The notes under the pieces: model-generated
Databases searched by the model: none
Told to the model about the DNA's origin: nothing
The model's input: only the letters and a program-made list of their open reading frames with translations
Made by a program: the position numbers and the translations under genes
From: a virus
Lineage: Duplodnaviria; Caudoviricetes
Strand: one strand, 5' to 3'
IMG/VR virus record: IMGVR_UViG_3300027714_000014
Coordinates: 1,460-65,459 of that record
Length of the DNA: 64,000 nt
Part shown: piece after piece, positions 12,445-26,503 of the stretch
How the letters are laid out: every line of letters begins with the position of its first letter
How positions within the stretch are numbered: position 1 is the first letter of the stretch

Positions 12445-13111
12445 TTAATATATCTCCAATTAATGGCAAAATCTTTGCAATCTGCACTGCACATTCCTTT
12501 GCCACTTCCATATGTTCTTGTTGTGTGCCATTCGCTGATCTTAATTCTATATAGTGAACCCAACTGCGAAGGGTTCCATTCATATATAAACGTGATACAG
12601 TATTACCTTCTGGTAGTACTACACGGGCCTGTTCTTTTGCAATACCATTTTTAATGGCCCATTCATATGTTTCTTTTGCAGTATTAATAAGAACTTCCTG
12701 TTTCATCTTCCAATGAAAATGTAACTCACTCTCACTATCTAACTCAACACTGTTTTGACGATTTTTATCATCTTGTAGTCGAGCATCTCTAGTAACAAAA
12801 TCTAAGTCTTTTGTAGGATCAGCATATCGTTGACTAAACTCTTGAAACGAGAAAGATCGATGACGTAGTATCTGCCTGGCAATATCTCTTGTTGTTTCAA
12901 TTTCTAAACATGCACTAACCATCTCTAGTGGCGACCAGTGTTTATGCTTAATGAGATACTTGATTAGTTTTTCAGAGGTATCTTTATTATTTTGATTATC
13001 AGGATTGGATACACGGGCGCAATAAGCTATCAAGTCTTGGCAGTTGTTCAGTCCCTTGCCAAACTGCAACCCTGTATCTGGTACTGAATTTGAAATTAAA
13101 TTTACTTGCAT
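12437..13111 (-). CDS. thyX: flavin-dependent thymidylate synthase
   Basis: RHRSFSFQEFSQRY ThyX signature; HKHWSPLE. Confidence 0.95.
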   Translation of the reverse strand: MQVNLISNSVPDTGLQFGKGLNNCQDLIAYCARVSNPDNQNNKDTSEKLIKYLIKHKHWSPLEMVSACLEIETTRDIARQILRHRSFSFQEFSQRYADPTKDLDFVTRDARLQDDKNRQNSVELDSESELHFHWKMKQEVLINTAKETYEWAIKNGIAKEQARVVLPEGNTVSRLYMNGTLRSWVHYIELRSANGTQQEHMEVAKECAVQIAKILPLIGDILND

Positions 13112-13129
13112 TATCTACTCTTCTAAAAA

Positions 13130-13204
13130 TGGTGCCGGTGGTAAGAATCGAACTCACAACCTATTGCTTACAAAGCAATTGCTCTACCGTTGAGCTACAC
13201 CGGC
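13130..13204 (-). tRNA. tRNA-Thr(UGU)
   Basis: GCCGGTG acceptor stem; ATTGC-TTTGTAA-GCAAT anticodon arm; TTCGATT T-loop; encoded CCA. Confidence 0.92.
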
Positions 13205-13213
13205 ACACATTAA

Positions 13214-13432
13214 CTATCGCCGATTACTATTCGGACGATATCCTTTAGGCCAACTAGGTTGGCGAGAGGCGAGTTTAGTAACTCGTTCCCTCAACTCCTC
13301 ATTGGCTTTCGCCAACTCAGCGTTTTGAAAACCAAATACCTTAATTTGATTTTCAAGTTCCGTCACCTTAGAGGCGAAGAAACCTTCTTCACGGATGGCG
13401 GGGTCACCATCCAGATGCACTGTAAATTCCAT
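13214..13432 (-). CDS. hypothetical coiled-coil protein
   Basis: 72 aa, GGAG RBS, own sigma70-type promoter at 13489-13517. Confidence 0.6.
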   Translation of the reverse strand: MEFTVHLDGDPAIREEGFFASKVTELENQIKVFGFQNAELAKANEELRERVTKLASRQPSWPKGYRPNSNRR

Positions 13433-13522
13433 TAGAAATCTCCATTGCTAGGGTTGCTGCCGTCAATCCCGACAGTTGAACATAAACTATATTACTATAG
13501 TTCAACGAATTTGTCAAGTACC

Positions 13523-13759
13523 TTATAGAGGTAATTGAGCACATTTTGGCAAATAATTCAAATCTCTCGCATTAGCTTCAATCTTCTCTTTGAGAGATTT
13601 TGAAATTAGAGGCCTTAAAGAATCAGGTTCAAGACCTTCTGCCTCACAGTACCATAACACGGCATCCATATGAGTTATCGCTTTCTCAAGAGCAATTTCT
13701 TCAATTTTGAGTGAAAAGGTTTTTGAGGTATTCAGTGGCATTATAATATTCCATAACAA
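13523..13759 (-). CDS. gp33: late transcription coactivator gp33
   Basis: FSLKIEEIA...MDAVLWYCE...ISKSLKEKIEANARDLNYL. Confidence 0.88.
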   Translation of the reverse strand: MLWNIIMPLNTSKTFSLKIEEIALEKAITHMDAVLWYCEAEGLEPDSLRPLISKSLKEKIEANARDLNYLPKCAQLPL

Positions 13760-13766
13760 TTAAAAT

Positions 13767-13841
13767 TGGAGCGGGTGGAAGGTACTGCCCCTTCTTCTAC
13801 AATTTGGTAAACTGTTGTAATACTTTTTATACTACACCCGC
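13767..13841 (-). tRNA. atypical tRNA-Gly(ACC)
   Basis: GCGGGTG/CACCCGC acceptor, U73, CCA; anticodon loop TTACCAA; D-loop lacks GG; T-loop GGCAGTA. Confidence 0.8.
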
Positions 13842-13899
13842 AAGTTGGGGAGTTAACCGTGACTCCCCACGGATGTATTACGGCATCACCCGTTAGACA

Positions 13900-14160
13900 T
13901 TACGCTGTACGTAGTGCCTGATAGCCAGCAGCAACAACTGATCGTTTAGGTGTACCGATACGATACTTCATATACGTCTGACCGTCAAAAGACGATACAC
14001 GCTTGTTCAAATAGATCGCAAGACCTGACAGGCGTAGCTTACTGATAACAGCACGAACATTCTTAACACCATAACGTGATGTAATCTGTTTAGCGGTTAG
14101 TTCTGCACCATTAACAAGTGCTTTTTCGACCTTATCGGTCTGGGTAGTGGTAGTAGTCAT
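13900..14160 (-). CDS. small winged-HTH DNA-binding protein
   Basis: ELTAKQITSRYGVKNVRAVISKLR HTH-like segment, basic. Confidence 0.6.
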   Translation of the reverse strand: MTTTTTQTDKVEKALVNGAELTAKQITSRYGVKNVRAVISKLRLSGLAIYLNKRVSSFDGQTYMKYRIGTPKRSVVAAGYQALRTA

Positions 14161-14300
14161 TTAAATGTTTTCCTTAACATTGCAAATAGGCTGAAAGTAT
14201 TCCAACCTTTAAAATGGTAGTTTTTAGTCCTATAAAGAGAACTACCAAACTCATTAAGTGTCGATATAGCAATAGGTTGCCGTCACTTAAATTCGTATTA
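14161..14300 (-). ncRNA. structured 5' leader (candidate cis-regulatory RNA)
   Basis: Four hairpins and loop-loop CCTAT/ATAGG complementarity, downstream of promoter 14307-14335. Confidence 0.45.
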
Positions 14301-14353
14301 TAACAAAGTATAACATAGTAATATCTATTTGTCAACACCTTTTTTCAATATTA

Positions 14354-15025
14354 TTACTCAACACGGAGAGTTCCACCCATTGGTATAATATTTCTAGGTT
14401 TCTTAGAAAAGTTTTTATGAATGTAGCAAGAAGTGGTTTCAGTATCTACATGTATTGGCTTGAAGCCATGAAAGTGAATTGGCAGTAAATCTGATTTATC
14501 CAAGAGCTCTTTTGCCCGTGGATTGTTATCACAATTATCTAGTATAATCATGCCGCCATCTGCAAGACTTTTTAAAGAGGGTAATACGCACTTGGTACGG
14601 AAATGACCATCAATAATAATCACATCAAAATTCATTTTGTACTTATAGATAGATTTTGTGTACAAGCTCTGATCTTCCTCAACACAAATTTTGTGTTTAT
14701 TGTCAGGATTTACTTTGTCTGCCCACTCTTTATTCTTTTCAACACCATACATATTACACTTCATGTTATCCCACCAAACGGTGCTATAGCCACAACCAAA
14801 CTCAAAAACATTAGAATTTTCCCAGTTCATACTGCGAAGATATTCATAGCATGGATATGTATACAGTGGCATAATTTCTTGATAACCACTTACGGGAACA
14901 TTGTTTCTTGAGGATTCTAAAAATCCATAATCATTTCTAAGCTTATGCATCAAATATGTTAAATGTAATTCTTCTATTGGCAGTTCAACATCTGCGATAA
15001 TAACTTGTCTCTCGTACATAACCAA
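14354..15025 (-). CDS. class I SAM-dependent methyltransferase-like protein
   Basis: VFEFGCGYST motif I; FDVIIIDG; GGMIILDN. Confidence 0.75.
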   Translation of the reverse strand: MVMYERQVIIADVELPIEELHLTYLMHKLRNDYGFLESSRNNVPVSGYQEIMPLYTYPCYEYLRSMNWENSNVFEFGCGYSTVWWDNMKCNMYGVEKNKEWADKVNPDNKHKICVEEDQSLYTKSIYKYKMNFDVIIIDGHFRTKCVLPSLKSLADGGMIILDNCDNNPRAKELLDKSDLLPIHFHGFKPIHVDTETTSCYIHKNFSKKPRNIIPMGGTLRVE

Positions 15026-15039
15026 TCCTCATTATAATA

Positions 15040-15433
15040 AAGTGGTGGGTATTCTGTTGCAAGGAACCCACCGAACCCCGAAAGATTACGCAGCTAGTGC
15101 GTAATCCCCATATGCAATATTATCGTTTGCATTTACTAATTTGACCAATAACGCAGTCATCCGACAATTCTCCACTCATCCGTCCCTGCCTGTCGATCCT
15201 GTTTCGCCCCCATCAAAAAAAGACTAGGTATATTAAACCCGCTAGTAGGGTAATGTCAGCACATATACTCCAAACGATATATGCTTTAAACATCCACTTA
15301 CTAACCTCTCGTACTAAGGGGGTCTTCATCAGAATCCCCTATCATTACTTTTGGCATACTAGTCTCCTTTTGGTGGAGGCGTTGGGTACTGCCCCCAAGT
15401 CCAGTTCAGTTCTCAATTCGTATCATCAAATTG
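15040..15433 (-). ncRNA. ssrA: two-piece (circularly permuted) tmRNA, alphaproteobacterial type
   Basis: Piece ending GGCAGTACCCAACGCCTCCACCA (CCA at 15371-15373) lies upstream of the piece starting GGGGGCGAAACAGGATCGAC (15211); G3-U70; tag ANDNIAYGDYALAA* at 15086-15130; outer ends approximate. Confidence 0.93.
15213..15329 (-). CDS. 38-aa membrane peptide inside the tmRNA intervening segment
   Basis: MKTPLVREVSKWMFKAYIVWSICADITLLAGLIYLVFF*; GGGGA SD; stop 1 nt before tmRNA G1. Confidence 0.55.
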   Translation of the reverse strand: MKTPLVREVSKWMFKAYIVWSICADITLLAGLIYLVFF

Positions 15434-15438
15434 TACTC

Positions 15439-15469
15439 TATTTATACCATGTGAGGAATCATTTGTCAA
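15439..15469 (-). promoter_or_regulatory. composite sigma70 + T4 late promoter for tmRNA
   Basis: TTGACA-N17-TATAAATA. Confidence 0.75.
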
Positions 15470-16149
15470 GACCCAAATGGAATAAAACTTTGAATAGAAT
15501 ATCTATATCTTTCATCAAATTCAGCATATGTTCCATGAAAATTTTTTCCCTCATAAATTATCAAGGTGTTAAATGTGCTTGGTGCAATATGATATAATTC
15601 CCAATCTTCATCTCCCTCAAAATTTTGCCAAGGAACAATAATACTTTTTTTAAGCTTGCTCATAACTATTCCACCAACTTTACTTTTTGGTAAGATTAAA
15701 TTATCATTATTATAATGCCCTTTGTATCTGTAAAATGCTGTGCCTCCAACATAGTCACACAGCCATATATTACAAACTATTTTAAGATTGTCAACATGGG
15801 GCATCCATGAATTTTTCCAGACTTGCATATTCTTTGATAATATCAAAGAAGTGCTTAATGATTTAGTCACATCAACGTTTACTCCTAATTGAGGAAAAAG
15901 GGATTGATATTTTTTTAATATAGGAACTAAATCCATAGGAGTAAAATTCTGTCGTGCGCCAGGAGTATATACATGACCATCCAATGCTGGCCATTCTCTT
16001 AAAATTGATATTGTGTCTAAGGGATTTTTCAGAAAATCATCAATAGAATAATACTTTAAGTCACCAATTTCATTTTTTGTAATTTTTAAATTATCATTTG
16101 GCTCTAAAGTTTTGTATAGTTTATCACGATTTATAAAATTAAAATTCAA
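15466..16149 (-). CDS. 2OG-Fe(II) oxygenase-like protein (DUF6445-like)
   Basis: IDDFLKNP, PHVD, GGTAFYR, FNTLIIYEG..FH. Confidence 0.7.
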   Translation of the reverse strand: MNFNFINRDKLYKTLEPNDNLKITKNEIGDLKYYSIDDFLKNPLDTISILREWPALDGHVYTPGARQNFTPMDLVPILKKYQSLFPQLGVNVDVTKSLSTSLILSKNMQVWKNSWMPHVDNLKIVCNIWLCDYVGGTAFYRYKGHYNNDNLILPKSKVGGIVMSKLKKSIIVPWQNFEGDEDWELYHIAPSTFNTLIIYEGKNFHGTYAEFDERYRYSIQSFIPFGS

Positions 16150-26134: not shown

Positions 26135-26503
26135 TTAACTTCTCCTCATTGTTGCAACTTCTATTGCTTGTTCTTGGTTGCGAATAGGTACTGCATTAGA
26201 TTTATGCATCTGGGCAATCCCTATAATTTCAGTTCCCGTATAAACCATCTCTTCTTTCTTTGCCATAGAAGAGTCATATACGATCTTTGGTTTGGTGCTC
26301 TCGACAGGACTCGAACCTGTGACCCACGGTTTAGAAGACCGTTGCTCTAATCCAGCTGAGCTACGAGAGCCAATTCCCATCTTCTTCAAAAACTTTTTAT
26401 GATCACGCTCGGCAGCAAGTAGACTTTGAGTCTTCTTGCGTACCTTACGTTTCTTAGTGTTCGTTGTAGAGTAGAACACCGGCAATAAATGCATACCACT
26501 CAT
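26135..26503 (-). CDS. hypothetical protein containing an in-frame tRNA
   Basis: MSGMHLLPVFYSTT... and C-terminal YTGTEIIGIAQMHKSNAVP; start overlaps the upstream stop and stop abuts rpsU. Confidence 0.7.
   Translation of the reverse strand: MSGMHLLPVFYSTTNTKKRKVRKKTQSLLAAERDHKKFLKKMGIGSRSSAGLEQRSSKPWVTGSSPVESTKPKIVYDSSMAKKEEMVYTGTEIIGIAQMHKSNAVPIRNQEQAIEVATMRRS
26293..26370 (-). tRNA. tRNA-Arg(UCU)
   Basis: GCTCTCG/CGAGAGC acceptor; ACGGT-CTTCTAA-ACCGT; TTCGAGT T-loop; CCA; 78 nt. Confidence 0.92.

Follow-up and report, generated by a model that had tools for sequence, protein, structure and literature searches.

A predicted phage tRNA-Gly(ACC) from a large group of unannotated marine-phage tRNA genes with an alternative elbow

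Introduction

A 75-nt element on the minus strand of a viral contig raises the question of what purpose is served by a tRNA-Gly that combines the rare anticodon ACC with an unusual D- and T-loop elbow. The element lies at 13767..13841 of a stretch of 64,000 nucleotides, referred to here as the window (positions 1,460 to 65,459 of the IMG/VR record IMGVR_UViG_3300027714_000014). The source is a 65-kb viral contig, estimated to be 40% complete and related to the Methylophilales phage Melnitz and to SAR11 myophages. A sequence-only reading of the window had offered three answers, namely a decoder optimised for GGU, a nuclease-evading or decoy tRNA, or a donor of glycine outside the ribosome. According to the accessible text of two papers, tRNA-Gly(ACC) is absent from eukaryotes and has been 'banished from nearly all organisms' (PMC4928997, PMC6720975). 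The same texts, as far as they are accessible, describe a mutant tRNA-Gly(ACC) that can be charged and is active in elongation (PMC4928997, citing Boren et al.), as well as an ACC/GGU pairing that sustains translation in a tRNA-mimic reporter (PMC6720975). Position 34 is stated there not to be read by glycyl-tRNA synthetase, GlyRS (PMC4928997).

Results

The reverse complement of 13767-13841 is identical to the tRNA sequence given by the earlier reading. It forms a cloverleaf with a 7-bp acceptor stem (13835-13841 paired with 13771-13777), a D arm (13817-13832) of three pairs plus U13.U22, an anticodon arm (13799-13815) with a 5-bp stem and a T arm (13778-13794) with a 5-bp stem, followed by U73 at 13770 and an encoded CCA at 13767-13769, all on the minus strand. 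Direct reading placed the anticodon A34 C35 C36 (13806..13808, minus strand) inside the 7-nt loop UUACCAA (13804-13810) and found U8, A14, A21, U33, G53-C61 and the 3' CCA in place. The identity set of bacterial GlyRS comprises G1-C72, C2-G71, G3-C70, U73, C35 and C36, and each of these marks was read directly in the gene, as had been claimed for its glycine identity. The T-stem pair 51-63 is A-U. From the conserved elbow set, G19, C56 and A57 are kept, while the remaining positions are A18, G54, G55 and G58. The D-loop, AAAAAGUA (13821..13828, minus strand), is the consensus AAAAGUA of the family described below with one extra A, and the T-loop, GGCAGUA (13783..13789, minus strand; G54 G55 C56 A57 G58 U59 A60), was read directly and placed by alignment. 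The previous description of the gene as having no G18G19 holds for G18; a single D-loop G remains and is aligned with G19.

The Rfam tRNA model (RF00005) scored the gene at 43.4 bits against a cut-off of 29 (E 3e-7) under lax filters only, a favourable outcome for the covariance-model check that had been proposed. The other suggested check, ARAGORN, did not report a tRNA at 13767-13841 when run on the window, nor did Rfam with default filters. The family model R1 gave 85.4 bits (E 1e-19). The fold z-score was -4.07, and none of 200 shuffled sequences folded as well. A 7-bp D hairpin present in the minimum-energy fold was rejected, because the covariation of U11-A24 to C11-G24 within the family favours the cloverleaf register. 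A DNA contig from an independent run spans 13384-13894 with 0 differences from the window, so the gene is not an assembly artefact; 14 DNA runs contain at least 80% of the sampled words from 13300-14300. The RNA contigs of three metatranscriptome runs, compared over 13000-14400, cover an 86-aa ORF (13902-14279) and part of the tRNA-Thr gene and leave the tRNA-Gly gene uncovered, although such contigs cannot show absence.

An exact 24-nt search returned two identical copies of tRNA-Gly(ACC) and a third copy in locus L006, which is 95% identical over the tRNA alone and has unrelated flanks. It differs from the window gene at four positions: an unpaired base, an A deleted from the D-loop, and two stem positions at which pairing is retained or strengthened (G10-C25 to G10-U25, and G30-U40 to G30-C40). 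In L101, the acceptor pair 5-68 has undergone a double change from G-C to A-U. Relatives were collected with two patterns. The first fixed CCAA, the T-loop and UCCA only and had at least 118 matches; among the matches listed, a cloverleaf is formed by 48 distinct sequences, every one of them with a GG-less D-loop that the pattern had not specified. The second fixed the D-loop and the T-loop, left the anticodon free and was run on viral contigs (matches listed only) and on 185,579 species genomes. Together, the scans gave at least 135 copies and at least 87 distinct sequences, of which two rows (L218, L225) do not fold; with these removed and the window type added, 86 sequences were aligned. 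The class is defined by the D-loop (A)AAAAGUA without G18, the T-loop GGCAGUA and A as the last base of the variable loop. Since the collecting patterns fixed the loops and CCA, loop invariance in the alignment of 86 is partly a matter of construction. In the stems, 95.6% of the cells pair, compensatory changes on both sides occur at 19 of 21 pairs and covariation is present in all four stems; no shuffle out of 500 matched the alignment, and slid controls paired at 35-46%. The family-wide covariation and the fold-compatible differences of the L006 copy bear out the earlier view that the stems are intact and not decaying. Judged from its sequence and that of its relatives, the window gene is a genuine, conserved phage tRNA-Gly with the rare ACC anticodon.

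ARAGORN called none of the 86 distinct family sequences, and Rfam in default mode missed the variants in L093, L291, L006 and L101 besides the window copy. The group is hidden from the standard tRNA finder because its elbow is built of different matching bases. The alternative elbow is nearly confined to viral contigs: the scan of 185,579 species genomes yielded 23 pattern matches, and about 12 of them have a tRNA fold; of these 12, several come from short MAG contigs or from tRNA arrays, and no Pelagibacter-type title is among them. Contigs assigned to bins of gut, soil and freshwater bacteria also contain tRNAs with this elbow. Most of the Gly members are located between Hsp20 and sliding-clamp genes, as is the alternative-elbow tRNA-Gly(UCC) of the isolate Pelagibacter phage Mosig (MT647606 7779-7852; L291 4001-4074), which is annotated only as the 96-nt hypothetical CDS Mosig_000011. 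The tRNAs of these phages have been surveyed with tRNAscan-SE and ARAGORN, and the term 'tRNA-Gly' is absent from the accessible main text of that survey (PMC9004378). A literature search that covered few subscription journals found no description of this elbow class. By its loops and stems, the window tRNA is placed in a large unannotated group of putative marine-phage tRNAs with an alternative elbow. The T-stem pair 51-63 is A-U or U-A in 64 of the 86 family sequences. Five distinct sequences of one Gly subclade (L157, L255, L290, L181, L201) have 6-nt anticodon loops (UCCCAA, UACCAA, UUCCAA) and the member in L177 has A33 (loop UAACCAA); sequencing error, decay of the copies or an unusual mode of decoding could each account for them.

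The elbow was surveyed in 260 ARAGORN-called tRNAs of the fetched loci together with the variants, giving 278 distinct sequences. A GG D-loop was accompanied by U55 in 127 of them and an AG D-loop by G55 in 103; about 20 of the 278 rows fall off the diagonal of the 18:55 table, and at least four of these are A19:U56 forms. The 54:58 pair is U:A in 149 tRNAs, G:G in 86 and A:U in 12. The unbiased result of 48 GG-less D-loops out of 48 matters here because part of the table of 278 is pattern-selected. The changes co-vary across the 278 tRNAs, so the contacts have been replaced, not lost: A18:G55 stands for G18:U55 and G54:G58 for U54:A58, with G19:C56 unchanged. Intermediates were present among the ARAGORN-called tRNA-Gly(GCC) genes of the same phages, which combine the D-loop AGUAGUA with the T-loop UGCGAAU, AGAAGUA with UGCGAAA, or AGAAGUA with AGCGUUA. 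ARAGORN-called tRNAs in L051, L073 (tRNA-Thr), L141 and L246 have a D-loop ending in UGAUA and a T-loop beginning with UUUGA; these forms suggest a matched A19:U56 replacing G19:C56.

A two-piece (alpha-type) tmRNA is encoded about 1.5 kb upstream of tRNA-Gly(ACC), at 14995..15473 on the minus strand. The reported identity between its T-loop, GGCAGUA at 15387-15393, and that of the tRNA was confirmed and spans 11 nt, GGGGCAGUACC, covering the T-loop and its two closing G-C pairs. A specific link to the phage's own tmRNA did not stand, as the same elbow occurs in contigs binned with other bacteria and the T-loop follows the general co-variation. Among 66 tmRNA T-loops of the fetched loci (mostly L008-L087), all have G55, and positions 54/58 are split between G..G (34) and U..A (32), so the resemblance is to a general alternative T-loop and indicates no within-phage link. 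The individual loops were GGCAGUA (30), GGCAGUG (4), UGCAAUU (21), UGCGAUA (7), UGCAAUA (2) and UGCAACU (2). Gene conversion from the phage's own tmRNA was considered as the source of the tRNA T-loop and rejected, since tRNAs with that loop also occur in contigs from bins of Clostridia, Bacilli, Verrucomicrobia and cyanobacteria.

The gene order at the locus is tmRNA, three ORFs (the last being the 86-aa ORF), tRNA-Gly, a coactivator gene, a 72-aa ORF, tRNA-Thr and ThyX. The late-transcription coactivator gene (PF16805, E 8e-17; 13523..13759, minus strand) lies directly downstream of tRNA-Gly(ACC). Upstream, the conserved 86-aa ORF (13900..14160, minus strand) served as the anchor for fetching syntenic loci; viral contigs contain 287 relatives of it, and it has no Pfam family at E 0.001. 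The 223-aa ORF between the tmRNA and the tRNA (14354-15025, minus strand) has no Pfam family at E 0.001 either. Two further tRNAs, both found by ARAGORN and Rfam, have canonical elbows: tRNA-Thr(UGU) at 13130..13204, a standard tRNA in the same phage, and tRNA-Arg(UCU) at 26293..26370, each on the minus strand. Locus L039 shares this order and has flanking proteins that are 86% and 93% identical, but its slot is occupied by a canonical tRNA-Gly(UCC); in L010 and L012, no tRNA separates the 86-aa ORF from the coactivator gene. The sequence-only reading had regarded canonical versions in relatives, combined with uniqueness of this copy, as grounds against itself. The close relative L039 does carry a canonical UCC gene at the same site, but the window copy is not unique. 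Since relatives leave the slot empty or fill it with a canonical UCC gene, and since the flanks of the L006 copy are unrelated, tRNA-Gly(ACC) behaves like an exchangeable cassette, apparently gained, lost and replaced between two conserved genes. The contigs of one DNA run end exactly at the 5' edge of tRNA-Gly(ACC). Immediately upstream of the gene, at 13846-13894 (minus strand), there is a conserved element with a 7-bp hairpin. A 26-nt stretch of it matches Melnitz between the tmRNA and the coactivator gene (L004 5047-5072), and the depth over the element in one DNA run spikes to 169, versus about 5 over the tRNA. The coactivator gene may have a shared regulatory site in this element.

GGT accounts for 49% of the 1138 Gly codons in the 66 ORFs of the window. 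The codon-usage count proposed for a GGU decoder thus came out in its favour, with GGT the commonest Gly codon and this option the best fit of the three; the other tRNAs of the contig fit its commonest Thr (ACA) and Arg (AGA) codons. Among the distinct Gly members of the family, the anticodon loop is UUUCCAA in 35 and UUACCAA in 16 (15 plus the window type), the rarer forms being CUUCCAA, AUUCCAU, CUACCAG and UUGCCAA. ACC is maintained across many different anticodon stems. The odd elbow, previously described together with ACC, proved separable from it: six loci have an ARAGORN-called tRNA-Gly(ACC) with fully canonical D- and T-loops (L253 9558-9632, L266, L196, L278, L279 and L290), and these phages also carry a variant UCC or C34 tRNA. 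When isolate phages were searched by BLAST with canonical-elbow Gly(ACC), there was no clear isolate gene among the matches listed. A second Gly tRNA was present in 20 of 84 variant-U34 loci (15 GCC, 5 ACC) versus none of 26 variant-A34 loci, a contrast (Fisher p = 0.003) that is uncorrected for relatedness and drawn from fragments of unequal length. The occurrence of a second Gly tRNA with variant UCC, and never with variant ACC, suggests a division of decoding labour. Codon use differed little between A34 and U34 loci (GGT 69% versus 65%, Mann-Whitney p = 0.065; GGA, p = 0.04), and the near-equal GGT does not support codon adaptation of position 34. On a sliding-clamp protein tree (71 rows, quick method), position 34 needs nine changes, at least three to four of which are forced by well-supported branches; the nine changes would also be compatible with weak constraint at a base that the synthetase does not read. 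As to an editing of A34 to inosine like that of tRNA-Arg(ACG) by TadA, the deaminase fold PF00383 had no match in the 65-kb contig, whose completeness is put at about 40%.

The scaffold carries seven anticodon identities including Gly. Members with the Gln UUG anticodon mostly have G73 (three rows have A or U), those with Lys UUU have A73, those with His GUG mostly have C73 (one row has A73) and those with Ile GAU have A73; the Thr UGU anticodon is also represented. U73 is found in all NCC-anticodon members except one GCC row (L283, A73). Members with the Ala UGC anticodon have G3:U70 and A73. The anticodon is not what the alanine synthetase reads, and the presence of G3:U70 together with UGC argues that the Ala-type RNAs have been selected as translation adaptors. 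Several identities with mostly fitting discriminators or G3:U70 point to ordinary use in translation. In one viral contig (L246 6558-6894), four alternative-elbow tRNAs stand in tandem within a larger array, with 17 tRNA-like genes listed, and a contig of Chthoniobacter flavus Ellin428 (L213 1540-6353) has 14 tRNA-like genes and adjoins a Lon-protease-like ORF. Both arrays mix canonical, intermediate and full alternative elbows.

Discussion

The window gene probably encodes a working, GGU-reading tRNA-Gly built on an alternative elbow. Its conservation, covariation, identity elements, distribution and synteny are established by the comparisons above. We infer that it is transcribed and processed, charged and used on the ribosome, and that A34 stays unmodified. 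As all the sequence marks of bacterial GlyRS are present, the host enzyme most likely charges tRNA-Gly(ACC) with glycine. A34 would pair on the ribosome with the U of GGU, the commonest Gly codon of the phage, and in its unmodified state may read other GGN codons less well. The L-shape would be kept by matched corner contacts, namely A18:G55, G54:G58 and A15/A48 in place of G15/C48, with the outer G19:C56 retained. The scaffold is common to at least 86 distinct tRNAs, and its T-loop pattern to the tmRNAs of related phages. On the simplest view, the alternative elbow is an equally good structural solution that has become fixed in place, as leaving it would require simultaneous changes at several bases. 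Against the decoding reading stand the five 6-nt anticodon loops of one subclade and A33 in L177, and the fit between discriminator and anticodon is imperfect, given the Gln, His and GCC exceptions at position 73.

Host elbow-modifying enzymes and T-loop-directed nucleases read G18, U54, U55, A58 and G46, and T-loop-cutting toxins are known. The tRNA could decode and have its elbow kept for the removal of these bases, as a form of counter-defence or self-marking by which the phage tRNA survives or works when host tRNAs are cut, or needs no host modification. Such a role would be in keeping with the loss of bases that are the targets of conserved elbow modifications, with the near-restriction of the class to viral contigs (about 12 folding matches in 185,579 species genomes) and with the existence of arrays of alternative-elbow tRNAs (L246, L213); in the accessible text of PMC7912444, G18, U54 and U55 are described as modified and conserved. 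We nevertheless consider it unlikely, since Gly alone has the new elbow in the window phage, where the Thr and Arg tRNAs are canonical, since the corresponding site of close relatives is empty or holds a canonical tRNA-Gly, since the graded intermediates resemble drift through matched pairs and not a switch, and since no nuclease or partner gene was identified. We advance only tentatively the broader idea that rebuilt phage elbows free phage translation from host elbow-modifying enzymes and T-loop nucleases, with the tmRNA following the same strategy and the ACC tRNA acting as a modification-free reader of the whole GGN box. If true, phage translation would run independently of host elbow enzymes and defences. 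A decoy tRNA is less likely.

In work on EF-Tu, A-U or U-A at 51-63 is the weaker kind of pair, as in the staphylococcal non-proteinogenic tRNA-Gly, and this pair is A-U in the window copy and A-U or U-A in most of the family. A U32-A38 pair is conceivable and would shorten the anticodon loop, and some members have 6-nt loops. These features could belong to a non-ribosomal glycine donor of the staphylococcal cell-wall type, which GlyRS would charge but which would be withheld from EF-Tu and serve a transferase instead. The non-proteinogenic NP1-3 tRNA-Gly of S. aureus are, in the accessible part of their description, likewise without G18 and U55 and have A-U at 51-63 (PMC13443448); position 34, which according to the passages available GlyRS does not read (PMC4928997), varies freely in the family. 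However, the staphylococcal tRNAs have lost both G18 and G19 and have the anticodon UCC, whereas the window tRNA retains G19:C56, has the anticodon ACC and shares its scaffold with tRNAs of six other anticodon identities (Gln, Lys, His, Ile, Ala and Thr), whose acceptor marks mostly agree with the anticodon and which also stand in mixed arrays. The pattern of second Gly tRNAs, which suggests divided decoding labour, also speaks against a donor. Profiles of Fem-type transferases, FemAB (PF02388) and Fem-like acetyltransferase (PF13480), had no match in five phage records, including the window contig and full-length Mosig. With six other identities on the scaffold and no Fem-type gene in these records, the donor proposal of the sequence-only reading has lost weight and appears very improbable. 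A decaying pseudogene, a chance cloverleaf or an assembly error, to which the lack of a call by ARAGORN or default Rfam and the canonical tRNA of a close relative at the same site might point, is scarcely credible given that all four stems covary, that a conserved copy lies in the unrelated flanks of L006, that an independent DNA contig shows 0 differences and that there are 86 distinct relatives.

Read as a probable decoder, the window tRNA shares with the canonical tRNA-Gly(UCC) of L039 the cloverleaf, G1-C72, C2-G71, G3-C70, U73, C35 C36, CCA and the slot in the genome, the two being 69% identical. It differs in having A34 for U34, the D-loop AAAAAGUA for AGUGGUA, A for C as the last variable-loop base and the T-loop GGCAGUA for UUCAAUU. 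An ACC anticodon on a glycine tRNA has parallels in engineered or mutant tRNA-Gly(ACC) and in the natural A34 tRNAs found in reduced genomes; unlike the engineered molecules, the window tRNA occurs in nature, is conserved and recurs within a phage group. The Steinberg laboratory reportedly selected functional T-loop variants from E. coli libraries, in which the 54-58 pair and the D/T contacts were replaceable by matched solutions. In contrast to those selections, the alternative elbow described here is natural and occurs on many identities.

These tRNA genes are overlooked by a standard tool, including the copy in the cultured phage Mosig. Given the complete failure of ARAGORN on the 86 sequences and the misses of default Rfam, phage tRNA counts, and the host predictions made from them, are incomplete. 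The family can be regarded as a natural experiment in tRNA architecture, in which the near-universal G18:U55 and U54:A58 appear swappable, with intermediates, and in which the same solution is met in tmRNA. A natural and conserved tRNA-Gly(ACC) makes the avoidance of A34 by glycine testable in a culturable phage-host pair, Mosig and Pelagibacter ubique HTCC1062.

The T-arm of the two-piece tmRNA (Rfam RF01849; consensus GGCgGUA) has the same T-loop and closing pairs as tRNA-Gly(ACC). The tRNA differs from tmRNA in having a full anticodon arm and a D stem and no tag reading frame, and it carries G3-C70 and U73 as opposed to the Ala marks (G3:U70) of tmRNA, so that the shared part is the T-arm only. 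About 100 nt upstream of the tmRNA in the window, at 15580-15659 on the minus strand, a weak match to the family model (18.2 bits, E 0.027) ends in ACCA and could be a degenerate tRNA remnant or a product of chance.
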